From Alphaproteobacteria bacterium (GTDB taxonomy: Bacteria > Patescibacteriota > Minisyncoccia > Phycocordibacterales > JABAAK01), in contig JASGCN010000002.1 of assembly GCA_030054135.1 (NCBI GenBank), forward strand, positions 21,484 to 85,483: a DNA stretch of 64,000 nt, read 5' to 3'. The position numbers and the translations under genes are program-made. A model generated the notes under the pieces. It was not told the origin of the DNA and did not search any database. It saw only the letters and a list, made by a program, of their open reading frames with translations. Below, piece after piece: positions 1 through 58,932 of the stretch (positions are counted from its first letter, which is position 1; each line of letters opens with the position of its first letter).

Positions 1-11
1 AAGTAAGTTAC

Positions 12-41
12 GCACACCGAAAGGTGTGCGTTTTTTTGTAT
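12..41 (+). terminator. Rho-independent terminator hairpin (CGCACACC-GAAA-GGTGTGCG + T7); copy 1 of a repeated terminator module followed by GTATAATTTTAGACAATTTT
   Basis: Perfect 8-bp stem, GAAA loop, 7 T run; identical module recurs at 706-752. Confidence 0.6.
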
Positions 42-190
42 AATTTTAGACAATTTTCGATACATATACACAGTGGAAATCTTTATTTTTTATTGTGAAT
101 ACAAGCGTATAATTAAGATACACGTGTCCCGGTCTCTCCGTCTCTCTGCAGACAAGAAAGACTGGGCACATTTATTTTAAAATTTTTCTG

Positions 191-219
191 TTGCTATTTT
201 AAGTTTTATAGGTATACTA
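191..219 (+). promoter_or_regulatory. Putative sigma70-type promoter TTGCTA-N16-TATACT upstream of small SD-led ORF
   Basis: Hexamers read directly from sequence; spacing 16. Confidence 0.3.
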
Positions 220-250
220 ATTATTAAATAATAAAATAAAGGAGAAAAAT

Positions 251-343
251 ATGATTTATAATCATAGATCCATGATTATAAATCATGGATCTTTACTTCG
301 CCCCACCCTTTCTTGCAAATTTTTTCATAAAATATCATTTTAG
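251..343 (+). CDS. 30-aa ORF (MIYNHRSMIINHGSLLRPTLSCKFFHKISF) with AAGGAG Shine-Dalgarno 6 nt upstream; coding DNA is itself palindromic (ATGATTTATAATCAT / ATGATTATAAATCAT)
   Basis: SD AAGGAG at 239-244, ATG 251; too short for the ORF track; no homology recognised. Confidence 0.2.
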   Translation: MIYNHRSMIINHGSLLRPTLSCKFFHKISF

Positions 344-421
344 ACACAAGTAAAAGGGATGGGGCATTTTATTTGTCAAAATTTTAGATTTTCATTATAT
401 ACAGCATACAGGGTGTATACA

Positions 422-450
422 TTGACAATCATGAGTTTTTAGTTTATAAT
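422..450 (+). promoter_or_regulatory. Canonical sigma70 promoter TTGACA-N17-TATAAT
   Basis: TTGACA 422-427, 17-nt spacer, TATAAT 445-450; followed by SD-led ORF at 483. Confidence 0.55.
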
Positions 451-482
451 TAATTAAATACATTAAAAAAGGAGATAAAAAA

Positions 483-701
483 ATGGAAGAAGAAAAACAA
501 TTTGTTATTACACCAGAAAAACTAAAAAAGTATGGCAATAGTATAATACGCCCTGATGACCCCCCCAAGGAGAAAGAAGCGGTATCTTCATCAGATGAAA
601 ACCCTTTCAAAAGATTTCTCGATGAATTTGATAAATCACCGGGGGGTCTAAAAAATTTTTTTGAGTTTCTTTTGAAACTCTCCCCACCGGAAAAGAAGTA
701 A
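483..701 (+). CDS. Hypothetical 72-aa acidic/lysine-rich protein, SD-led (AAGGAG 8 nt upstream of ATG)
   Basis: ORF track 483..701; strong SD at 469-474; terminator immediately downstream; no family recognised. Confidence 0.5.
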   Translation: MEEEKQFVITPEKLKKYGNSIIRPDDPPKEKEAVSSSDENPFKRFLDEFDKSPGGLKNFFEFLLKLSPPEKK

Positions 702-705
702 ATAT

Positions 706-735
706 CGCACACCGAAAGGTGTGCGTTTTTTTGTA
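706..735 (+). terminator. Rho-independent terminator, copy 2 of the repeated module (identical hairpin to 12-41)
   Basis: CGCACACCGAAAGGTGTGCGTTTTTTT followed by GTATAATTTTAGGCAATTTT. Confidence 0.6.
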
Positions 736-813
736 TAATTTTAGGCAATTTTAATGATGTGTGTGTGGGGGTTGTCTTTTTTTAAAAATGTGGATATTTG
801 TGTATTTTTTGTA

Positions 814-840
814 TTGCAATTTTAAAAATAGGTGTATAAT
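814..840 (+). promoter_or_regulatory. Putative promoter TTGCAA-N15-TG-TATAAT driving a short transcript
   Basis: TTGCAA 814-819; TGTATAAT 833-840. Confidence 0.4.
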
Positions 841-846
841 AAAGTA

Positions 847-920
847 AATCAACAAACAAAAGGAGGTGATCCGTCTACCCCTCTCTCCAAATTGTTAACA
901 ATTTGGAGAGAGGGGTTTTT
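847..920 (+). ncRNA. Candidate small RNA (~70 nt): single-stranded AAAGGAGGUGAUCC followed by 15-bp-stem intrinsic terminator (CCCCTCTCTCCAAATT-GTTAAC-AATTTGGAGAGAGGGG + T5)
   Basis: Promoter-to-terminator unit with no plausible ORF (only GTG directly abutting the AGGAGG, 10 codons); terminator 878-920. Confidence 0.3.
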
Positions 921-1008
921 ATTTTCAAAGTGTTATACAAATATGTCAAGCATCGTTTTTTCTATACATAGTTATATTTCAGTACAATTTATATTGGTAT
1001 AATTAAAT

Positions 1009-1743
1009 ATGAGCAGAGAAACACGTAGGAGTGGGGGACAACAAAAAAAAGAGAAGTTTGCAAGACAAAAAATAGAAAACATAATCAACCAAATAAAAAA
1101 AATAAATAGTGAAAATGGAGAAAAAAAATTTATTATTGTGTTAAAAGATACGAACCTGAATGTGTTGATATGCAAACAATTGATTTCAAAAAAATTATTT
1201 TCTGAAAATCATATAAAAATATTTCTACTCAATAAAAATTATATAGAAAATTATAATGCCATAGAAGCATTAATTAGAAATGAAAATATTATTCCCAGTG
1301 ATGCATTGGATACACTCATTGCACATGTAAATACAATTTTTTCTATAAGAACACAGATTAATAATCAAGATACAGATATTATTTTTTCATTTACGAATGC
1401 ATATATTAAAGCTAAGGAAACTAACCAATTTCCTCCATGTAAGTATTTAACATACTTGGATCCAATATTTATTAATGAATTAAAAAAAATACTGAATCAT
1501 ATTCCAGTATCTAGAAGTTTTTTGCGTCATCTTAATACACGCTTTTCGTTCATAAGACAAATTGCACAATTGAAATATGCCAGTGGCATTTCTGTTATTC
1601 AACGCGGTCGCAAAGATGAAGTATTAAAAAAATATACTGCAACCACAGACAAAATATTGCAACAAAAATTGAAAAAATTATATCTATTGATACACGAAAA
1701 ATCTGTACAATTGCAACATGACATTATCACAAGAAATAAATAG
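1009..1743 (+). CDS. Hypothetical protein (244 aa); leaderless-type start (TGGTATAAT 5 nt upstream of ATG)
   Basis: ORF track; -10 box at 998-1003; no family recognised. Confidence 0.55.
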   Translation: MSRETRRSGGQQKKEKFARQKIENIINQIKKINSENGEKKFIIVLKDTNLNVLICKQLISKKLFSENHIKIFLLNKNYIENYNAIEALIRNENIIPSDALDTLIAHVNTIFSIRTQINNQDTDIIFSFTNAYIKAKETNQFPPCKYLTYLDPIFINELKKILNHIPVSRSFLRHLNTRFSFIRQIAQLKYASGISVIQRGRKDEVLKKYTATTDKILQQKLKKLYLLIHEKSVQLQHDIITRNK

Positions 1744-1747
1744 ATAA

Positions 1748-2296
1748 TTAATTTTTATTTATTTTTAAATTGGCAGTGGTGATGAATTGACTGAAAAATT
1801 CACACCATATCACAATGCTTAGTGTTTCTGAAACAACATAATCAGAGGGAAGGGTAAAAATTTGCATACCACTATATTGTTTCACATCTGCAACGCGGAT
1901 AGCGTTTTTCTTATTTGTATTGAATTTTTCTTCTGTGTCTATATTGTGTTTCGGCACAAGATAGAGTTTATAATCTGGACCATTGGTTACTTTGAATGAA
2001 TCTGAAAAAATAATGTGGTGTGTGTCGTGTTGTTTCACAAGTGATACCCCTCCCCATCCACGATGTAATGCATCTGATCCTTCAGCATTAGGATTAAACA
2101 TACCTGTTGCAATAATTTGTATATCGTTTGCTACTGCTGTGCGACCATTTTTTATTGCATTCATTGTATTTTGAAGAATTGTACTTTGTTCAGAAGTTAT
2201 TTTTTGTTTTTCTGACATGTGTAGGGAAGCAAACCACACACCACCAATACCAAGTAGTATTAGTGTAAATACAATAGTGGTATGTGTAGCGCTCAT
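1748..2296 (-). CDS. Membrane-anchored DM13-domain protein
   Basis: N-terminal TM helix; HRGWGGVSL...FKVTNGPDYKLYLV resembles DM13 domain signature (GxG...NGPDLxVYL). Confidence 0.5.
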   Translation of the reverse strand: MSATHTTIVFTLILLGIGGVWFASLHMSEKQKITSEQSTILQNTMNAIKNGRTAVANDIQIIATGMFNPNAEGSDALHRGWGGVSLVKQHDTHHIIFSDSFKVTNGPDYKLYLVPKHNIDTEEKFNTNKKNAIRVADVKQYSGMQIFTLPSDYVVSETLSIVIWCEFFSQFITTANLKINKN

Positions 2297-2307
2297 ACTC
2301 TATTAGT

Positions 2308-2667
2308 TTATTTCGTAAACGAGAAAATATCGTCATCTAATCTTTTTTTTTGATCTAATTCCTTAAGTGCCGCGATATGTGCATATTGTTCTGGGTTTTC
2401 GCGATTTTTGATTAATAAGGATAGGGTTTCTTCTACAGTTAAATTCTTATTCTTTGCGTATATAAGAACCAACATATCATCCTGGTCTTCTTTTATTTTA
2501 TATTCAGTGGCACCTATATTGAATGATGTTGGTTTGATTTCATCTGGGTTAATTTTATTTTTCAGCAGAGTTGTTACTAATAAAAAAGTTTTTGCCGCAA
2601 CAAGTTGGCCATAAAAAAAGCTCTCTACTGCTTCTTGTGTTGTTTGTATTTTTGGTGCTTTTTCCAT
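2308..2667 (-). CDS. Hypothetical protein (119 aa)
   Basis: ORF track; TATAATTAAAT directly upstream of ATG on minus strand. Confidence 0.45.
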   Translation of the reverse strand: MEKAPKIQTTQEAVESFFYGQLVAAKTFLLVTTLLKNKINPDEIKPTSFNIGATEYKIKEDQDDMLVLIYAKNKNLTVEETLSLLIKNRENPEQYAHIAALKELDQKKRLDDDIFSFTK

Positions 2668-2791
2668 ATTTAATTATACAACATATTTTTATATAAAAAT
2701 GTGTTGTGGGGTTAATGTAAGTTAATTATTGAAAAAAACAAATTACACGACCAACAATAAAGAGAGGGTATACCTTTTTTATAACAAGATT

Positions 2792-3529
2792 TTAATTTAT
2801 AATCTCTAAAATGTGTTTTTGTGTGTGAAAGTATAGATCGGCACCTTTTTTATGAGTAGAAAATATGTCTGCGTTAATGGGTATTGATATACAATAACGA
2901 GGTTCATGTATATTTTTTACTAATCGGCCATATCCGACACATGTGCCTGAAATTTCTAAAAATTTTTCATACGATTGAATTTCGATACCGTGGGGGTTTG
3001 CTCGTGACGCGTGAATTACCGTATCTTCTGTAAGGTACATACCAACATGGTCAATCCCTTCAGGTATTTTTGTTCCTGGAATATACTCAACGCTTTCGTA
3101 ATATATGTTTCCTTTACCAGTGTTGGTAAACACCATGTCTCCATACACACAATCGTTTTTATTTTTTGGTTGGGGGATATTTTTTAAATTTTTAACATAG
3201 AGATATTTGTCTATTGAAATTGAAGGTATGTATATACCACGATACAGATATGAAACAAGCGAAGAACAAGAAAAAAAATTGGGAGCATCAAGGCGCATAT
3301 TGCTTGGATTTTTGTATTGAGCATTCAATACTACTGGTATACGCTTTTGTATTTCATTATACGGAGAAATGAGTTGGGTAGGGTAGTGGGCGTTTAACTT
3401 TTTTAGAGTGTGTTCTGTGTGTGTGCATGTGGATGTGTCTATGGATATATCGTAATTCATAGTATGAGTGTATTGTAGAATACTAGTATATGCAACACAA
3501 TAATACAAAAAAAGAATGCAAAAAAACAA
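2792..3529 (-). CDS. NlpC/P60-like (papain-fold) cell-wall peptidase family protein
   Basis: Cys...His...His arrangement: FFSCSSLVSYLYR, NDCVYGDMVF, IDHVGMYLTEDTVIHAS resembles NlpC/P60/DUF1287 motifs. Confidence 0.5.
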   Translation of the reverse strand: MFFCILFLYYCVAYTSILQYTHTMNYDISIDTSTCTHTEHTLKKLNAHYPTQLISPYNEIQKRIPVVLNAQYKNPSNMRLDAPNFFSCSSLVSYLYRGIYIPSISIDKYLYVKNLKNIPQPKNKNDCVYGDMVFTNTGKGNIYYESVEYIPGTKIPEGIDHVGMYLTEDTVIHASRANPHGIEIQSYEKFLEISGTCVGYGRLVKNIHEPRYCISIPINADIFSTHKKGADLYFHTQKHILEIIN

Positions 3530-3881: not shown

Positions 3882-4310
3882 ATGAACAAAAAATTATATG
3901 TCGGTGGTCTTGCGTGGGCAACTACTGACGAGTCATTACAAGCTTACTTTGCATCAGCAGGAGAAGTTGCTTCTGCTCGTGTAATTCGTGAACATGGGAC
4001 TAATCGTTCACGAGGATTTGGTTTTGTGGAAATGGCCGATGAGGCTGGCGCACAAAAAGCAATTGACACACTTAACAACACAGAACTTGATGGGCGCGCT
4101 ATTTCAGTTAATGAAGCTCGTCCTGAAGATCCTAATCGATCACAAGGTGGTGGTGGAGGCGGATACCGAGGCGGTGGCGGAGGTGGATATCGAGGCGGTG
4201 GCGGAAGCTACGGCGGAGGTTCACGCGGAGGCTACGGCGGAGGTTCACGCGGAAGCTACGGCGGAGGTGGCAATCGTTACGAAAACAAATCATCTAACGG
4301 AGGGTACTAA
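3882..4310 (+). CDS. Glycine-rich RNA-binding protein with RRM domain
   Basis: KLYVGGLAW...RGFGFVEM RNP2/RNP1 motifs; C-terminal GGGGGYRGGGGG repeats. Confidence 0.85.
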   Translation: MNKKLYVGGLAWATTDESLQAYFASAGEVASARVIREHGTNRSRGFGFVEMADEAGAQKAIDTLNNTELDGRAISVNEARPEDPNRSQGGGGGGYRGGGGGGYRGGGGSYGGGSRGGYGGGSRGSYGGGGNRYENKSSNGGY

Positions 4311-12980: not shown

Positions 12981-15923
<2,943 letters not shown>

Positions 15924-16044
15924 AAATGAAAGAACATAACACATGAAAGCAAATAACAACACAATTATTTTATAGATACAATGTGAAGAAAGTTGCCTTT
16001 GCTATTGAATTGTCATATACTGAAAGAGGATACTTAGTATTTAA

Positions 16045-16152
16045 CTTTGGTGATATACTCGTGGAGGTAACACCCGTTCCCATTCCGAATACGGCAGTGA
16101 AGGGCCACAGAGGTGATGATACTCGAAAGGGGAAAGTAGCTCGTCGCCAAAG
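16045..16152 (+). rRNA. rrf: 5S ribosomal RNA
   Basis: CACCCGTTCCCATTCCGAATACGG core; terminal helix CTTTGGTG...CGCCAAAG. Confidence 0.8.
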
Positions 16153-30178: not shown

Positions 30179-30213
30179 ACTTGACATGATATAACAGCGT
30201 TAGTATACTTGTA
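30179..30213 (+). promoter_or_regulatory. groESL promoter TTGACA-N17-TATACT; no CIRCE operator detected
   Basis: CTTGACATGATATAACAGCGTTAGTATACT read directly. Confidence 0.55.
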
Positions 30214-33661: not shown

Positions 33662-33783
33662 AATTTTTGTGTTATACTTATATTAGAAAACAACAATAGG
33701 AGATTTAAATGGAAGAAAAAAAAAATCAAAATAGTACATACATATGTACGATTGAGGGCACTATTGTGTCTGAGCCAGAAAAA

Positions 33784-33813
33784 CCCGACAACGAATAGTT
33801 GTTGGGTTTTTTT
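33784..33813 (+). terminator. Rho-independent terminator (CCCGACAAC-GAATA-GTTGTTGGG + T7)
   Basis: Hairpin plus T run downstream of htpX. Confidence 0.6.
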
Positions 33814-34050
33814 ATATACATATGTGTTAGTAAAATCAATGGCTTACAAAATACCTTGTGATTTTAATTCCGAACAAAGCGAGCATGGTGTAGTTGGCAT
33901 TTCCTTCGTTTGAGCAGCGAACGAAGCATTCGGTTTATATTATAAAATTGCAACTGTCTGAACGAAGTGAGTTTTGCAATTTTAAATATAAGAGAATGCG
34001 GAGTGAGCGAATAGCGAAAACGGGAAGTGACAAGTATACCTGCGAGCGAG

Positions 34051-39155: not shown

Positions 39156-39370
39156 GTATCTACTACAAGGGTACTCGCACCCAGTTAGTGTATGCACTAA
39201 TTAAAACCTTTTTTAAGGGCGAAATTCACTTGTATTTGCTCTTTAACCAGTATTGATAGAATAATAATCTACAAGAAAAAAAGAAAGTGGTAATCGTATA
39301 TTTACTTTTACCCCGATCTTTCCTTTTGATTTGAAATTAAAGTGATTTGATGATAACAAAAAAAATATAT

Positions 39371-40828
<1,458 letters not shown>

Positions 40829-41023
40829 CTTTTGAGCAATCTGTAATAAGATTGTTTGGTCAAATGTCTTTACTTTATGTAAAGACAAGATAATAACACA
40901 ACATCTCTAAAGAGTGTTCGGTATAGCCCATACACGATAGGGTAGGAAAGAACGGGGTAAAAGTAAGTAGACGATATCATAGATTATTTTTTCTATACAA
41001 TATTGGATAACGCGAAACAAAAA

Positions 41024-41050: not shown

Positions 41051-41063
41051 GTTTCAACACATT

Positions 41064-41216
41064 TTTTATCAAAAAAACAGAGAAGTTGTTATTTCTCTAT
41101 TTTTATGTTTTAATATAATCAGAGCTATATATAAAAAGTAAAAAAAAGAATAGACAATAGTGTCTCTTTCTTGTTTTTTTATTTTGGTCATCAACGATCA
41201 CATATAGTTAGGATCT
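41064..41216 (+). repeat. Conserved ~150-bp leader element copy 1 (promoter TTTTAATATAATCAGAGCTATATA + short terminator-like hairpin + T run) upstream of small membrane-protein gene
   Basis: Near-identical to 41860-42004; partially conserved at 54897-54999. Confidence 0.6.
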
Positions 41217-41826: not shown

Positions 41827-41859
41827 GTTTCAAACCAAATTTTTATAAATTGCGTTCTT

Positions 41860-42004
41860 TTTTATCAAAAAAACAGAGAAGTTGTTATTTTTCTATTTTT
41901 ATGTTTTAATATAATCAGAGCTATATATAAAAAGTAAAAAAAAAGAATAGACAATGGTGTCTCTTTCTTGTTTTTTTATTTGGCCACCAAGGGCTTATAT
42001 AGAT
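41860..42004 (+). repeat. Conserved leader element copy 2, ending in GGCCACCAAGGGCT box
   Basis: ~95% identical to copy 1 over ~130 bp. Confidence 0.6.
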
Positions 42005-44416: not shown

Positions 44417-44476
44417 ATACAACATGTGCAGAGTAAACACGCTATACTACAAGTGATACAAGATTGATGTAGATAT

Positions 44477-44788
44477 ATGAAAGATATTACCTATTTAGGA
44501 GAAAGCAATGCACGTGGAGAACGTATTCGTTTTGGCATAAAAGAAGAAGATCGTGCACGACACATGTATATTATTGGGCAAACTGGTACAGGTAAATCAA
44601 CGCTCATCGAAAACATGGTGATACAAGATATCGTTAATGGAAAAGGATGCATTTGTCAAAAAAATTCTTCTTATCGATCTTTCAAAAGGGACCATAGGGG
44701 AAACAAATGCAAAAATGTTAGGAGTATTGTTTACCACGAAAGTGTATCTTGCTGCACTTTCTCGTGCAGATGTATCTACCAAGAATAA
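44477..44788 (+). pseudogene. Internally deleted, 3'-truncated duplicate of the P-loop ATPase gene at 46826 (first ~180 coding nt identical, then junction to a segment ~47518-47640 with 1-bp indel)
   Basis: 44436-44656 identical to 46785-47005 (including 40 bp upstream of ATG); 44657-44782 ~95% identical to 47518-47640. Confidence 0.7.
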
Positions 44789-46575: not shown

Positions 46576-46825
46576 ATATGGTGTAGTATATCATTCTCAC
46601 AAAATGTGGGTGCATTGAGTGCGGAACAAAAAAATAACAATTAAGCAACTATCATGACTTACATATTATAATGATATTGGAATTTCTTCTGTCGCACCAC
46701 CACAACGCATATAGTAGTGTTACCCCGTGCGAGTGTTTAGACACTTTCAGCGATATAAGTAGATTTTATAGATAATAATGATACAACACGCTATACTACA
46801 AGTGATACAAGATTGATGTAGATAT

Positions 46826-48790
46826 ATGAAAGATATTACCTATTTAGGAGAAAGCAATGCACGTGGAGAACGTATTCGTTTTGGCATAAAAGAAGAAGAT
46901 CGTGCACGACACATGTATATTATTGGGCAAACTGGTACAGGTAAATCAACGCTCATCGAAAACATGGTGATACAAGATATCGTTAATGGAAAAGGATGCA
47001 TTTGTATGGATCCACACGGACAAACAGTGGAACAGATTCTTGAATATATTCCAGAGTATCGCTTGAAAGATGTTATTTATTTTGCTCCACACGATCAATC
47101 ATTTCCTATTGGACTCAATATCATGGAAGATGTTGGGTACGATAAACGGCACTTAGTAGTGAGTAGCTTACTTTCTGCATTTGCAAAAATATGGGGAGAA
47201 AATTCATGGTCTGATAGAATGGAAAATATTCTTTCAAATACATTATTAGCGTTGCTTGAATTCCCAAACACAACACTTCTTGATGTTGGGCGTATGTATT
47301 CAAGTAAACAATTTAGAAAAGAAGTGGTAGATAACATAAAAGATCCACAGGTGAAACAATTTTGGACAGAAGAATTTGCAGCGTATACCGAACGATATGC
47401 AGCTGAAGCAACTCCCGCTATTCAAAACAAATTAGGACAGTTCACATCAAACCCAATTATTAGAAACATTGTTGGCCAAGTAGACAGCGCTTTTAATTTT
47501 AGACAAGTGATGGATGATAAAAAAATTCTTCTTATCAATCTTTCAAAGGGAACTATAGGGGAAACAAATGCAAAAATGTTAGGAGTATTGTTTACCACAA
47601 AAGTGTATCTTGCTGCACTTTCTCGTGCAGATGTATCTACTCAAGAGCTTGCAGCACTTCCTCCATGTACCTTTTATGTTGACGAATTTCAATCATTTGC
47701 GAGTTCAACATTTGCAGGTATTTTGTCTGAAGCTCGTAAGTATAAACTACATTTAGTAATTGCACACCAATACATTGATCAACTTGAAGAAGAAGTACGC
47801 AATGCAGTGTTTGGAAACATTCCTACCATTATTGCATTTCGGTTAGGGCCACTTGATGGTGAGTTTATGGAAAGAATATTTTCTCCAGTGTTTGAAGAAA
47901 AAGATATCATAACATTGCCACGATATTCTATGTATTTAACACTCTGCATCGATGGGGCAGGATCGAGACCGTTTTCCGCTCGATCGTTGCCGCCTCCACC
48001 TCTGCCTGTACGCTCTATTCGAAATGAAGTACTATCGTACTCTCGAGAACAGTACACAACACCTCGTGAAGAAGTAGAGGAACGTATTAATGCTCGCCTT
48101 ACGCAATATGCAAAAAATGTACCCCCTCCTCAAAGACCAGTAGCACAAAATAATTTTAATAACCCCACTAATGAAAGAAATTATGGTGTGCACAACAATC
48201 AAAGATCATACATGCAAGCCTCTTCTTCGTATGAATCTAATACTCCTCCCCAAATGCGACAGGTTCCTCCCATGCCCCAACACACTGGGGTTTCAGCCAC
48301 TGTGGGTACAGTCGAATCAGATGCTAACAAAACTATTATGATTCGTTCAAAAGTAGCAAGGCGCGCTACTCGTGTTGGTACTGGTAGACGAGTAGAAGAT
48401 ACAACAGGTGTGAATATAAAAAAAACAACTAGAACACCTCCATTGTCGGATATCCCTCGTGCCACACTGCTTAAAAAAACTACAACTGTTAAAAAGAAGG
48501 AAGTTGCCAAAGCAGAAACCAAAGTATTGGATAATGGTATTGAAACAGTATCGCAAAAAAAACCAATACAAAAGAATATAGTAAAATCACGGGTTAAAAA
48601 AGTATCACCATCAGTGGATATCTCTCCGGTATCTCCCGTACAAGATAAAATATTAACGGAAGTATTAAAAAAATTACAATCTCATCCAGAACATCTAAAA
48701 AAGTCTACGCCATTGTTTGCGCCACCAACAGGGAGAGAAGAAGGATGGGTCTCTCTTAGTGATGTGTTAAAAAAAGAAAACGAACTATAG
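46826..48790 (+). CDS. FtsK/HerA/TraD-superfamily P-loop ATPase (TrwB/VirD4-like nucleotide-binding domain), soluble, with ~250-aa Pro-rich disordered C-terminal tail
   Basis: Walker A IIGQTGTGKST at residue ~35 followed by DPHGQ; Walker B-like CTFYVDEFQSFAS; KYKLHLVIAHQ; low-complexity tail. Confidence 0.5.
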   Translation: MKDITYLGESNARGERIRFGIKEEDRARHMYIIGQTGTGKSTLIENMVIQDIVNGKGCICMDPHGQTVEQILEYIPEYRLKDVIYFAPHDQSFPIGLNIMEDVGYDKRHLVVSSLLSAFAKIWGENSWSDRMENILSNTLLALLEFPNTTLLDVGRMYSSKQFRKEVVDNIKDPQVKQFWTEEFAAYTERYAAEATPAIQNKLGQFTSNPIIRNIVGQVDSAFNFRQVMDDKKILLINLSKGTIGETNAKMLGVLFTTKVYLAALSRADVSTQELAALPPCTFYVDEFQSFASSTFAGILSEARKYKLHLVIAHQYIDQLEEEVRNAVFGNIPTIIAFRLGPLDGEFMERIFSPVFEEKDIITLPRYSMYLTLCIDGAGSRPFSARSLPPPPLPVRSIRNEVLSYSREQYTTPREEVEERINARLTQYAKNVPPPQRPVAQNNFNNPTNERNYGVHNNQRSYMQASSSYESNTPPQMRQVPPMPQHTGVSATVGTVESDANKTIMIRSKVARRATRVGTGRRVEDTTGVNIKKTTRTPPLSDIPRATLLKKTTTVKKKEVAKAETKVLDNGIETVSQKKPIQKNIVKSRVKKVSPSVDISPVSPVQDKILTEVLKKLQSHPEHLKKSTPLFAPPTGREEGWVSLSDVLKKENEL

Positions 48791-54999: not shown

Positions 55000-55629
55000 A
55001 TGAAATTTCTTAGTGTATTATTTATTTTATTTTTAAGCCCAACATGGGCTAATAATTTTTCAGTATCCTTGAAAGAGGATATCTCAGATGCAACCCGGGT
55101 GCCCGGTTTGCAAAAGATAACATTTACAAATGGCATGGTTGCACCATGCCATATAAATGGGTTTGCGCGGTGTTACCCAGCGATTTCGCTGAGTGACAAT
55201 GTGTTAATCGAAAAATTTAGAAAATATGGCACAGGCTCCACCAACGCCGCTGAGTATTACTCAGCCTTGATTGGGGGAACCCCACTCAATGCAGCCGGCC
55301 TTGCTGGTTGCGTTGAGACAAGGGGCGAGGTCTCGGCTTGGGACAACTCTCTCATTGAGACATTGTACAATTCAACCCGGTTAAAAATAACATGCCCTGT
55401 AGAGGCATCTGCGCCTCTACAAAAACCCAAAAAGAAAAAAAAATCTTTTTGGGTTCAAAACAGGGATTGGCTAGTGCCGGTAGCGGCACTCTCCATCGGG
55501 TTAGGAGTTGGGCTCACCGCTAAGGTGAGTTCAACCGAAATTTCGCTTGAGGTCCAGGATGGACCTGAAGCGATTAAAGTCAGCGCAGGGAGCGCTGATC
55601 TTACAATTGACTATTCGGTAGATTTTTAA
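55000..55629 (+). CDS. Hypothetical secreted protein (209 aa) with signal peptide
   Basis: ORF track; N-term MKFLSVLFILFLSPTWA. Confidence 0.5.
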   Translation: MKFLSVLFILFLSPTWANNFSVSLKEDISDATRVPGLQKITFTNGMVAPCHINGFARCYPAISLSDNVLIEKFRKYGTGSTNAAEYYSALIGGTPLNAAGLAGCVETRGEVSAWDNSLIETLYNSTRLKITCPVEASAPLQKPKKKKKSFWVQNRDWLVPVAALSIGLGVGLTAKVSSTEISLEVQDGPEAIKVSAGSADLTIDYSVDF

Positions 55630-55647
55630 ATCTACCAAATAATACAA

Positions 55648-55682
55648 CGACTAGAGACATGAAGTCTCTGGTCGTTTTTTTT
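55648..55682 (+). terminator. Rho-independent terminator (CGACTAGAGAC-ATGAA-GTCTCTGGTCG + T8)
   Basis: Hairpin plus T run. Confidence 0.6.
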
Positions 55683-55688
55683 GTGCGT

Positions 55689-55788
55689 TTGACAAAATGC
55701 ACAAGAATTAGTATTATCAAATATCTACCAAGGGCTACCCTCCTGCCCTTGGTAGAGGCCAAGAATTAATAGTTCTTGGCCTTTTTTT
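55689..55788 (+). ncRNA. Candidate small RNA: TTGACA-type promoter, then 11-bp-stem hairpin with loop UACCCUCCU, then terminator hairpin AGGCCAAGAA-TTAATA-GTTCTTGGCC + T7
   Basis: Promoter-hairpin-terminator unit with no ORF; hairpin CTACCAAGGGC/GCCCTTGGTAG perfect. Confidence 0.3.
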
Positions 55789-55838
55789 GTGTCATATTCA
55801 ACTTGACACACATAAGTTGAATGGATATATTAGATTTA

Positions 55839-55870
55839 GAAATATCAATGGAGCGCTCCATTGATATTTC
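55839..55870. promoter_or_regulatory. Perfect 32-bp palindrome GAAATATCAATGGAGC|GCTCCATTGATATTTC followed by C8 tract
   Basis: Read directly; 16-bp arms with no mismatch. Confidence 0.5.
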
Positions 55871-55942
55871 CCCCCCCGACCGTTTAAATCTATATATACA
55901 GAAAAAGTACAAAAAAAAATGTGATCGGGGACTAAATTTATT

Positions 55943-55986
55943 GATCCTCAATTCGAAAAGAATTGAGGATTTTTTATGTCCCATTT
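55943..55986 (+). terminator. Rho-independent terminator-like hairpin (GATCCTCAATTC-GAAAA-GAATTGAGGAT + T5)
   Basis: 11-12 bp stem plus T run, ~25 nt upstream of tgt. Confidence 0.5.
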
Positions 55987-56010
55987 TTAATATATGTGTT
56001 ATAACAGGAT

Positions 56011-57264
56011 ATGAAAAGCTCTATTCAGGGAAATGAAAATCCTTTTTTTACAATACATACAAGAAGTAATACATATCCGCTAATGAGGGCTGGGACAATA
56101 CACACTCCTCATGGTGCTATCAACACACCTGCATTTATTCCAGTAGGGACAAAAGGAACGGTCAAAGCTCTAACAGTAGATCAACTTATATCAATTTCTG
56201 CACAAGCTGTTCTTGCAAACACTTATCATTTGTATTTACAACCCGGAGAGAACATTGTCTGTAAACACGGAGGGGTTGGTAGTATGATGAAATGGGATGG
56301 GCCTACTATGACAGACTCTGGTGGGTTTCAAGTTTTCTCACTTGGGCAGGCAATGGGGCATGGAGTGAGTAAAATTGCAACCAATAAAGAAATAAGCGAA
56401 CACGAATCGCGTATGACAGATGAAGCAAGTGTGCATACTACTCGTAAAGCAAAAATTGACGATGATGGGGTAACGTTTCAATCTGTGATAGATGGATCAA
56501 CACATCGGTTTACACCAGAGAGTAGTATTCAAATACAACACGATATAGGTGCAGATATTATTGTTGCATTTGATGAATGTACTTCACCTCTTGCTCCAGA
56601 GAAATATCAAAAAGAAGCATTACACAGAACACACTCTTGGGCAGAGCGTTGTGTACATGAACACAAAAGATTGGGGCTATCTGCTGCCACTGATTGCAAA
56701 CAAGCATTATATGGAGTAGTACAGGGTGGTGTGTATCCACACTTACGAAAAGAGAGCGCCTTATTTTTGAGCAAACTTGATTTTGATGGTTTTGCAATTG
56801 GTGGCTCTTTCACAAAAGAAGACATGCACATAACTCTCACTGAAAGTGTAAAACATCTCCCAGAAAATAAACCAAGACATTTTTTGGGCATTGGTGGGGT
56901 TGAGGATTTTTTTATTGGTATTGAAAACGGAATGGATACATTTGATTGTGTTGCGGCAACTCGTGTTGCAAGAAATGGATCAATCTATACAAAAAATGGA
57001 AGCATAAACATAACAAATGCCACATACAGAGACGATGTATCTTTGATAGACACAGACCAAAATAATCCTAGCTCAATATATACAAAAAGCTATCTGCACC
57101 ATCTTTTTAAAGCAAAAGAGATATTGGGCTACACCATAGCCACAATGAACAATTTGTATTTTATTATTAATTTGGTTGCAGGTATACGCAACGCAATTAT
57201 ATCAAATACATATGATGAGTATAAAACATATATTCTATCTAATTGGGAACGAGATAGTAAGTAG
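56011..57264 (+). CDS. tgt: Queuine tRNA-ribosyltransferase (tRNA-guanine transglycosylase) homolog lacking the canonical CxCxxC...H zinc site
   Basis: PAFIPVGTKGTV, DSGGFQVFSL, DECT, FDCVAATRVARNG, YLHHLFKAKE conserved; Cys of zinc motif replaced. Confidence 0.85.
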   Translation: MKSSIQGNENPFFTIHTRSNTYPLMRAGTIHTPHGAINTPAFIPVGTKGTVKALTVDQLISISAQAVLANTYHLYLQPGENIVCKHGGVGSMMKWDGPTMTDSGGFQVFSLGQAMGHGVSKIATNKEISEHESRMTDEASVHTTRKAKIDDDGVTFQSVIDGSTHRFTPESSIQIQHDIGADIIVAFDECTSPLAPEKYQKEALHRTHSWAERCVHEHKRLGLSAATDCKQALYGVVQGGVYPHLRKESALFLSKLDFDGFAIGGSFTKEDMHITLTESVKHLPENKPRHFLGIGGVEDFFIGIENGMDTFDCVAATRVARNGSIYTKNGSINITNATYRDDVSLIDTDQNNPSSIYTKSYLHHLFKAKEILGYTIATMNNLYFIINLVAGIRNAIISNTYDEYKTYILSNWERDSK

Positions 57265-58808: not shown

Positions 58809-58932
58809 TGGTGCTTTGCATATACATTGACTTCGCTAAATTGAGAAAATACAAAAAAATTAAAGTGAAAGTGCATGCATATCTTCTCCTTTTTTATTTT
58901 TCAATATAAGTGAGTAGTGGTATAATGCTCGT

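Follow-up and report, generated by a model that had tools for sequence, protein, structure and literature searches.

How does a bacterium whose ribosomes appear unable to pair with a Shine-Dalgarno (SD) sequence come to carry a row of small genes that are led by one? The question is raised by the first 920 nucleotides (nt) of a 64,000-nt stretch of DNA, hereafter the window, from contig JASGCN010000002.1 (assembly GCA_030054135.1, positions 21,484 to 85,483 of the forward strand), part of a metagenome-assembled genome (MAG) held at NCBI under the name 'Alphaproteobacteria bacterium'. These 920 nt hold an array of tiny transcription units, two of which place the purine motif AAGGAG in front of a short open reading frame (ORF). 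The first-pass annotation took the block for foreign DNA, derived from a phage or plasmid or recently acquired from an SD-using donor. The explanation favoured here, with moderate confidence, is a native, lineage-specific family of small genes that has been duplicated locally and is in part decaying, and whose AGGAG motif would be under selection for a role that is unexplained.

The premise of the question can be read from the 16S ribosomal RNA (rRNA) gene itself. It ends in ...GCTCGTGGAATGTAATTAAC (...GCUCGUGGAAUGUAAUUAAC), where the E. coli equivalent is GGAUCACCUCCUUA, and none of CCTCC, CTCCT and TCTCC (CCUCC, CUCCU and UCUCC in the RNA) occurs in the gene, whose tail is GGAAUGUAAUUAAC, or in the 170 nt after it (39365-41000); the early statement that the resident 16S carries no anti-SD is borne out. 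Among the 55 ORFs of at least 90 amino acids (aa) in the window, none has GGAG or GAGG at positions -20 to -3. A TAnnnT box stands 4-9 nt before the ATG in 31 of them (in 15 of these with an upstream TG), and T is found at -1 in 47 of the 55, features that point to a genome with mostly leaderless genes. The contrast originally drawn between the array and an SD-free, anti-SD-free and leaderless remainder of the window is supported. A purine motif 5-10 nt before a start codon is present at 251, 483 and 33709, and CCUCC is missing from the 3' end of the resident 16S, so that the AGGAG motifs are orphans.

Such a background is known biology: the anti-SD motif is reported to have been lost in about half of Parcubacteria (PMC9297842), and taxa without an anti-SD are reported to be without SD motifs as well (PMC6107228). 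The best matches of the UvrB protein are in Campbellbacteria, Parcubacteria and Paceibacterota (∼62% identity) and the rRNA features fit Patescibacteria, so the NCBI label is probably wrong and the MAG looks like a Patescibacterium.

Positions 1-920 divide into five or six very small independent units; every one comprises a putative promoter of sigma-70 type, a short body and an intrinsic terminator. These units, a related one at 33.7 kb and the 16S tail are laid out as follows:

1-6, + strand: AAGTAA stop context, aligning with the AAGTAA (696-701) that ends the 72-aa gene
10-58, + strand: first copy of the terminator-box module, with terminator stem 10-31 and T-run 31-37, followed directly by the box GTATAATTTTAGACAATTTT
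37-44, + strand: extended -10 element TGTATAAT, inside the box GTATAATTTTAGACAATTTT of this first copy
108-178, + strand: unit B, with TATAAT 108-113, a CU-rich hairpin 124-169, then TTTATTTT; U-run, no ORF
191-393, + strand: unit C, with promoter 191-218, AAGGAG 239-244, ATG 251 and a 30-codon ORF to 343
unit C, 3' part, + strand: palindrome 251-286, terminator hairpin 300-365 with U-run, diverged post-terminator box 363-393
422-752, + strand: unit D, with promoter, A-rich leader of ∼25 nt and the 72-aa gene 483-701 (QM526_01310)
unit D, 3' part, + strand: terminator 706-725 with T-run, box 733-752
732-790: weak unit, an extended -10 element and a T-run; poorly supported
814-925, + strand: unit F, with TTGCAA 814-819, a 15-nt spacer, TATAAT 835-840 and the leader AAUCAACAAACAAA
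unit F, 3' part, + strand: AAGGAGGTGATCC 860-872, a 20-bp perfect hairpin 877-916, then TTTTTATTTT
33670-33813, + strand: third copy of the promoter-leader cassette, with TG-T-TATACT 33670-33678, AGGAG 33698-33702 and ATG 33709
33709-33798, + strand: 29-aa ORF of this copy, starting MEEKK; stop codon 33796-33798 inside the terminator 33784-33806, T-run after it
40815-40829, + strand: 3' tail of the 16S rRNA, GGAATGTAATTAAC, anti-SD missing

The three promoter-like sites that had been picked out at 191, 422 and 814 are present there. Unit C has TTGCTA (191-196), a spacer of 16 and TATACT (213-218); unit D has TTGACA (422-427), a spacer of 17 and TATAAT (445-450), a 12/12 match to the consensus; in unit F a TG at 833-834 turns the TATAAT into the extended -10 element TGTATAAT (833-840). 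The two small ORFs likewise lie where they had been placed, each behind AAGGAG: the motif at 239-244 ends 6 nt before the ATG of the 30-aa ORF (251), and that at 469-474 ends 8 nt before the ATG of the 72-aa ORF (483). An ORF scan detected no ORF with a start signal in unit B, which folds well (120-182; -21.8 kcal/mol, z = -4.5) and is predicted to be an sRNA-like unit or a remnant. The AAGTAA at 1-6 is probably the stop context of a gene to the left of the window, QM526_01305.

The question then is whether these signals belong together. It could be held that AT-rich intergenic DNA yields promoter hexamers and AGGAG by chance, and that the 72-aa gene and the terminators alone are real. Some counts favour this view: promoter-like matches are not above shuffled sequence in positions 1-3000 (15 found, 18.9 expected) or in the whole window (29 against 28.6), AAGGAG is only mildly enriched across the window (32 copies against 21.7 ± 4.8), and by estimate about 10% of AAGGAG sites would precede an ATG at SD spacing by chance. 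What makes coincidence quite improbable is the arrangement. Four of the 32 AAGGAG copies fall within the first 920 bp, and AGGAG occurs four times on the + strand there against ∼0.4 expected from base composition. The stretch from promoter to start codon is moreover a repeated cassette: unit C (196-258) aligns with unit D (428-492) at a score of 44 against 21.5 ± 2.9 for shuffles, and unit D aligns with 33662-33717 at a score of 46 against 20.8 ± 3.0. Run over the window with nhmmer, a cassette profile hits exactly units C and D and the copy at 33.7 kb, with E values from 1e-5 to 5e-8 (1.4e-5 for unit C, 4.8e-8 for the 33.7-kb copy). The motif keeps one and the same spacing from the -10 box and from the ATG in these three homologous cassettes, whose similarity is far above what shuffles give; AGGAG begins 19-21 nt past the -10 box in all copies, in leaders that are otherwise almost without G. 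A further point against chance is a 13-nt match to the canonical 16S tail in unit F, for which the expectation is ∼1e-3 in the whole window (estimated from composition).

The third cassette alters the picture of a single island. At 33.7 kb AGGAG stands 6 nt before the ATG of a 29-aa ORF with a codon score of 0.22; the unit folds with z = -6.3, the ORF is called in Logan assemblies, and its MEEKK start is also the start of a 74-aa paralogue of the 72-aa protein. As the neighbours of this copy are a native gene and, on the other side, two tRNA genes, the cassette extends beyond a single island. The claim that no other gene in the 64 kb is led by an SD thus stands for the 55 larger ORFs and fails for this AGGAG-6-ATG ORF (33709-33798). 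The unit was also considered as a leader peptide or attenuator and rejected, the next gene being a convergent tRNA. Between it and tRNA-Glu lie ∼240 nt of non-coding DNA (33810-34050) with inverted repeats such as GAACGAAGCATTCGG and TTGCAACTGTCTGAACGAAGTGAGTTTTGCAA. On the minus strand at 58874-58911 there is an AAGGAG with ATG at 5 and 9 nt, antisense to the intergenic region of 58808/58933; with a weak nhmmer match (E = 6.7), a 23-codon ORF and no terminator, it is probably a chance occurrence.

The ORFs behind the cassettes are of unequal standing. The 72-aa ORF is a genuine gene: at 0.216, its codon score falls inside the range of native in-frame chunks (0.31 ± 0.11, against -0.17 off-frame and -0.30 antisense), and it has a paralogue. 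An exhaustive HMMER search of 1.8 billion representative proteins returns a sole homologue, the 74-aa product of QM526_01295 (E = 9e-6; pairwise BLASTP E = 2e-15, 40-47% identity), which is also the sole family match among 5.8e9 clusters; a profile search adds no further member. QM526_01295 shares its 97,848-bp contig with QM526_01310, is three locus tags ahead of it and hence lies to the left of the window; the QM526_ proteins of the MAG include MDI9325406.1 to MDI9325409.1. NCBI annotates none of the small ORFs within 1-482, so that QM526_01300 and QM526_01305 would also lie to the left. This supports the suggestion that a tandem array continues leftward. In unit C, by comparison, the start codon is buried in a 16-bp palindromic stem, the codon score (0.08) is ambiguous, and an AAGTAA at 349-354 is out of frame with the ATG at 251; the homology of its ORF body with that of unit D is not above shuffles. 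Its sequence suggests that unit C is probably a decayed family member.

The family is new and lineage-restricted, found in one MAG among the databases searched. The small proteins have no match in Pfam, PHROGs, NCBIfam, PADLOC or PDB, and the structure prediction of the 72-aa protein (pLDDT 72, pTM 0.29) is too weak for a fold search; the protein is highly charged, not basic and half-disordered, the model giving a disordered N-terminal half and two C-terminal helices. In the centroid fold of the unit D transcript the leader and AUG are predicted to be unpaired. Two homopolymers, C7 (559-565) and G6 (642-647), lie within the gene and are paired together in the predicted mRNA fold; with G5 at 768-772 and C8 at 55870-55877 they could be slippage-prone or error-prone sites in a genome of ∼31-36% GC. 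A 117-aa ORF antisense to the gene (395-748, minus strand) lacks start signals and annotation, its codon score (0.085) is ambiguous, and it is treated as a shadow of the 72-aa gene.

The ends of the units are repeated too. Positions 696-752 repeat positions 1-57 at 93% identity, and both copies run in the order AAGTAA, hairpin CGCACACCGAAAGGTGTGCG, T-run and GTATAATTTTAG(A/G)CAATTTT; the first-pass description of a twice-repeated terminator module after AAGTAA is accurate. The hairpin is the same in the two copies and has no other exact copy in the window. A third, diverged copy of the terminator-box region (363-393) aligns with 722-758 and 27-58 (score 27 against 14.6 ± 2.4), and further terminator hairpins lie at 124-169 and 300-365. 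In positions 1-3000 there are 10 terminator-like sites against 1.2 ± 1.1 in shuffles; the hairpins are GC-rich stem-loops followed by a U-run, as expected of intrinsic terminators, and their folds are above chance (z = -4.5 to -6.9). Alignment of 58-190 with 753-930 does not exceed shuffles. A generic REP-like repeat was rejected as an explanation: in 64 kb the hairpin module has two copies, both at this locus, beside the diverged 363-393. Rfam 15 assigns no family within 1-1100 (best score 27.4 bits against a gathering score of 67), and over the whole window rRNAs and tRNAs alone pass the gathering score. A type I toxin-antitoxin system was likewise rejected, given that neither the 72-aa nor the 29-aa product has a membrane-spanning segment and both are hydrophilic and carry many charges (sequence and AF2 model); promoter and terminator scans gave no convincing antisense promoter or terminator for one.

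Is the array then foreign? The proposal would be that the cassette family entered by an ancient import from a donor that uses SDs, be it a phage, a plasmid or a Firmicutes-like host or neighbour, and was amplified later, the AGGAG motifs and the 13-nt SD-like sequence of unit F being leftovers of the donor's translation signals. It draws on the confinement of SD-like motifs to this family, with 0 of 55 SD-led genes otherwise, on the perfect 13-nt complement of the canonical 16S tail in unit F, on the frequency in viral contigs of the 15-mer AAAAGGAGGTGATCC, often with ATG within 0-3 nt, on the ORFan nature of the proteins, which is typical of mobile DNA, and on an excess of GG/CC in 483-920. 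We consider it unlikely. No DNA or protein homologue emerges from phages, plasmids, IMG/VR or the JGI metagenomes: DNA similarity in phage and plasmid records does not go beyond AT-rich stretches of 66-80 nt, tblastn yields no plasmid match and no significant phage match at protein level (best E = 0.04), and IMG/VR and the JGI metagenomes hold no copy of the terminator module, unit F or the protein family. The search against phages and plasmids proposed for the 72-aa protein and the terminator module has therefore found no relative. No mobility genes lie beside the array on its right side, within the window.

The signals of the array also look native. Perfect TTGACA promoters are found before the 23S (12634) and 16S (39127) genes, the genes at 30181 and 42619, and two sRNA-like units at 55689 and 55803, and the leaderless genes usually carry the extended -10 element TGnTAnAAT; since the array shares both, its promoters appear to be of native type. 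In a comparison of 1-920 with the rest of the window, codon usage and GC content (0.31 against 0.32 in other intergenic DNA) came out native-like, and dinucleotide delta* was raised. The two paralogues have diverged to ∼40% identity, which suggests that the family is old; together with the dispersed copy, this would make any import ancient, and unused SDs should by then have decayed. The initial view of a phage- or plasmid-derived or recently acquired block has, on these grounds, no support.

Near-identical intergenic or 5' modules recur elsewhere in the window (41062-41184 with 41858-41981; 44436-44651 with 46785-47000), which suggests that duplicating modules locally is a habit of the genome. 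The first pair is a promoter/leader module of ∼123 nt (92-99% identity) before two genes of ∼190 aa (41217 and 41954), whose proteins are not detectably similar (BLASTP E = 0.1). The second is a 216-nt repeat at 100% identity (the scan ended at 47000). A 103-aa ORF and the gene for a 654-aa VirD4/TraG-like coupling protein share it as their upstream region and initial ∼58 codons, and it is either a truncated duplicate or an assembly repeat.

Unit F is the strangest part of the array. Over 13 nt, its AAGGAGGTGATCC (860-872) complements the canonical 16S tail perfectly, and no start codon follows it; the duplex of AAGGAGGUGAUCC with the canonical tail GGAUCACCUCCUUA reaches -25.7 kcal/mol, a strength unmatched elsewhere in the window. 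The unit folds at -36 kcal/mol (z = -6.9), leaving its 5' 14 nt unpaired and the segment from AAGGAGG to the stem weakly paired. Its leader AACAAACAAAAGGAG resembles AACAACAATAGGAG of the third cassette (33688-33702) at 13 of 14 positions; the overall alignment score is not above shuffles. From its layout, unit F may be an ORF-less copy of the cassette, giving a predicted small RNA of ∼75 nt or representing a gene remnant. It occurs once in the window and has no homologues in IMG/VR or the JGI metagenomes. Among the viral matches to the 15-mer AAAAGGAGGTGATCC about a quarter have an ATG within 0-3 nt; they indicate that such sequences exist in SD-using systems, not where unit F came from.

Two further interpretations of unit F were set aside. 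An attenuator of the chorismate-mutase-like gene was rejected because the antiterminator (-6 kcal/mol) is no better than shuffles; the gene at 1009, downstream of unit F, has its own -10 box for a leaderless start. An element boundary at 887, where the Logan assembly contig of the 244-aa neighbour begins, was rejected because (assuming k = 31) it marks the point at which 31-mers first extend beyond the 40-nt perfect palindrome (877-916).

A more daring possibility is that the motifs and unit F have as their target a canonical anti-SD outside the resident 16S. It would belong to a second, specialised 16S copy in the genome or to the ribosomes of a different organism, for instance the host on which an epibiotic Patescibacterium lives. 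As a small RNA, unit F would in that case clamp the 16S tail GGAUCACCUCCUU; alternatively, its minus-strand RNA would mimic an anti-SD and mask the AGGAG leaders. The 13/13 complementarity and its duplex energy fit this idea, as does the layout of unit F as a free-standing sRNA with its own promoter and strong terminator; the organism's own anti-SD-less, leaderless translation would be immune, and a VirD4/TraG-like coupling protein and pilin-like genes are encoded in the same window. The minus strand has a hairpin followed by GGAUCACCUCCUU, behind a promoter-like TTGACA-17-GAAAAT (949-921). Against this, the -10 element of that promoter is weak and no terminator lies on the minus strand, so that a minus-strand anti-SD look-alike is given little weight. 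RNA export and a second 16S are without evidence, and Patescibacteria usually carry a single rRNA set. Unit F, a single occurrence with no homologues, is more simply an ORF-less cassette copy, and we regard a target in other ribosomes as very improbable.

The reading that accommodates most of these observations remains the duplicated native family. The host would be a Parcubacteria-like member of the Patescibacteria, with leaderless ordinary genes and a 16S from which the anti-SD has been lost. In the ancestral unit a sigma-70 promoter with an extended -10 element would have come first and an A-rich leader of ∼25 nt second, AGGAG holding a fixed place in it ∼20 nt past the -10 box; the ATG and a short ORF would have followed AGGAG at 6-8 nt, then an intrinsic terminator a few bases from the stop codon or spanning it, and finally the post-terminator box GTATAATTTTAG(A/G)CAATTTT. 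Unit D and the 74-aa paralogue to the left of the window would be intact copies, unit C and the 29-aa unit at 33.7 kb shortened or decaying ones, and units B and F ORF-less copies made as short hairpin RNAs. Each unit would be transcribed separately from the + strand, and the 72-aa and 74-aa ORFs would be translated from leadered mRNA through an open, A-rich initiation region.

What the AGGAG does in such a unit is the remaining part of the question. The motif is intact at a fixed place in three to four copies that differ at ∼40% of the other leader positions and contain almost no other G, which suggests that it is kept by selection and is not a mark of recent import. To our knowledge, the known roles of SD-like motifs all require an anti-SD. 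As SD:anti-SD pairing is impossible with the resident 16S, AGGAG is most likely a binding site for another factor that controls the family, or makes a contact independent of rRNA. Two candidate partners were tried and rejected. The 16S tail pairs with the leaders at -1 to -4 kcal/mol, worse than the window median. For a candidate small RNA with CCUCC in a loop (55724-55790) the duplexes come to between -7.9 and -10.7 kcal/mol, energies that 7-20% of random windows also reach; it pairs with the leaders no better than with 16-20% of random windows.

Several points weigh against the favoured reading. The delta* of 1-920 is 0.22, compared with 0.075-0.10 in other intergenic chunks; the rise stems from the GG/CC excess in 483-920, with 1-482 normal at 0.105. 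Other 380-bp intergenic pieces reach 0.13-0.19 and the array segments are short, so that the excess is as compatible with foreign origin as with noise from small samples. The family model does not account for the 13-nt match to the canonical 16S tail, which can be called no more than an inherited or extended version of the motif. AGGAG may survive by chance, for which a rough estimate, made with no formal test, is p ∼0.01 or less. The family comes from one MAG, and the conservation rests on three to four paralogous copies in one genome. Lastly, no partner for AGGAG was found among the candidates paired with it (the 55724-55790 sRNA and the resident 16S tail).

Other features of the window touch on the same subjects. 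The candidate partner belongs to an sRNA-like unit (55689-55790) with a TTGACA-17-TATTAT promoter and a predicted 69-nt transcript of two hairpins (-38 kcal/mol, z = -7.2); the first shows UACCCUCCU, with an anti-SD-like CCUCC, in a 9-nt loop, and the second is the terminator. The next unit (55803-55978) has TTGACA-17-TATATT, a hairpin formed by a perfect 14-bp palindrome, a C8 run and, in addition, a strong terminator (z = -6.8). Rfam has no family for either over 55620-56020. As for starts, genes of the leaderless type include those at 1009, 2667 (minus strand), 5430, 23331, 29302 and 58933, often with the box TGnTAnAAT; genes inside operons have stop-start overlaps and no SD, and uvrB of the nearest Patescibacteria shows similar starts with a -10 box and then ATG. 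A literature search for leaderless genes in Parcubacteria found no paper. A 142-aa protein with an RRM domain (PF00076; 3882-4310) has seven GGAGG repeats in the 3' part of its coding region (∼4155-4303), consistent with a glycine-rich tail, and an apparent leader without an SD. According to Rfam, the 23S-5S pair (12982-16152) and the 16S (39365-40829) are unlinked, the latter lying 23 kb further on on the same strand; 23S (12634) and 16S (39127) each have their own TTGACA-17/18-TATAGT promoter, and the 16S (1465 nt) and 5S (107 nt) are short.

The locus is a small exception to the reported absence of SDs from genomes that have no anti-SD, and the orphan SD is a modest puzzle; the call of a 'foreign island' is not justified for 1-920. 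If AGGAG is under selection, the array offers a natural test of SD-like function without mRNA-rRNA pairing. If it is a slowly decaying relic, what remains is an ordinary ORFan gene family. Gene-calling programs set up for SD-led or for leaderless starts will mishandle such mixed genomes.

Set beside known systems, the array shares its layout with the SD-led monocistronic small genes of Firmicutes style, in which an extended -10 promoter, AAGGAGG, 6-9 nt, ATG and an intrinsic terminator follow one another; here it consists of a promoter, a short A-rich leader, AAGGAG 6-8 nt before ATG and a terminator after the stop. The likeness ends at the ribosome: the resident 16S has no CCUCC or CUCCU and mRNA-rRNA pairing is impossible, in a window whose other genes are SD-free and mostly leaderless. 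A rare extended SD in an SD-blind lineage is known from rpsU (bS21) of Flavobacteriales, where it is used for autoregulation (PMC9976891, PMC7797042, PMC13000453). There, as here, a few genes keep a strong SD in an SD-avoiding genome, implying a specialised regulatory use. Bacteroidia, however, keep the anti-SD and sequester it with bS21, bS18 and bS6, whereas here it is absent from the rRNA; nor are the array proteins ribosomal (no Pfam, NCBIfam or PHROG match, and not basic). The anti-SD-less Parcubacteria and other taxa (PMC9297842, PMC6107228) share with this genome the UvrB kinship, a tail without CCUCC and SD-free ordinary genes. They are reported to be without SD motifs, and this locus, with one small paralogous family, is the exception.

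For unit F, a precedent similar in form is STAB-SD of cryIIIA, an SD-like 5' mRNA stabiliser that does not serve initiation (reviewed in PMC4113751). In neither does the SD-like sequence serve a start codon; that of unit F is very strong, lies ∼13 nt from the predicted 5' end and is followed by none. STAB-SD binds the anti-SD of the 30S subunit and protects a long downstream mRNA; unit F has no anti-SD to bind, and its transcript would end ∼50 nt later at a strong terminator. As a kind, finally, there is nothing out of the ordinary in a family of small ORFan genes arrayed in tandem, with promoters and terminators of their own and with some copies decayed to ORF-less hairpin units. The family itself is new and found in this MAG only, in the databases searched, but the pattern is that of tandem ORFan small-protein families elsewhere: two intact paralogues at 40-47% identity, shortened and ORF-less copies, and shared flanking modules.

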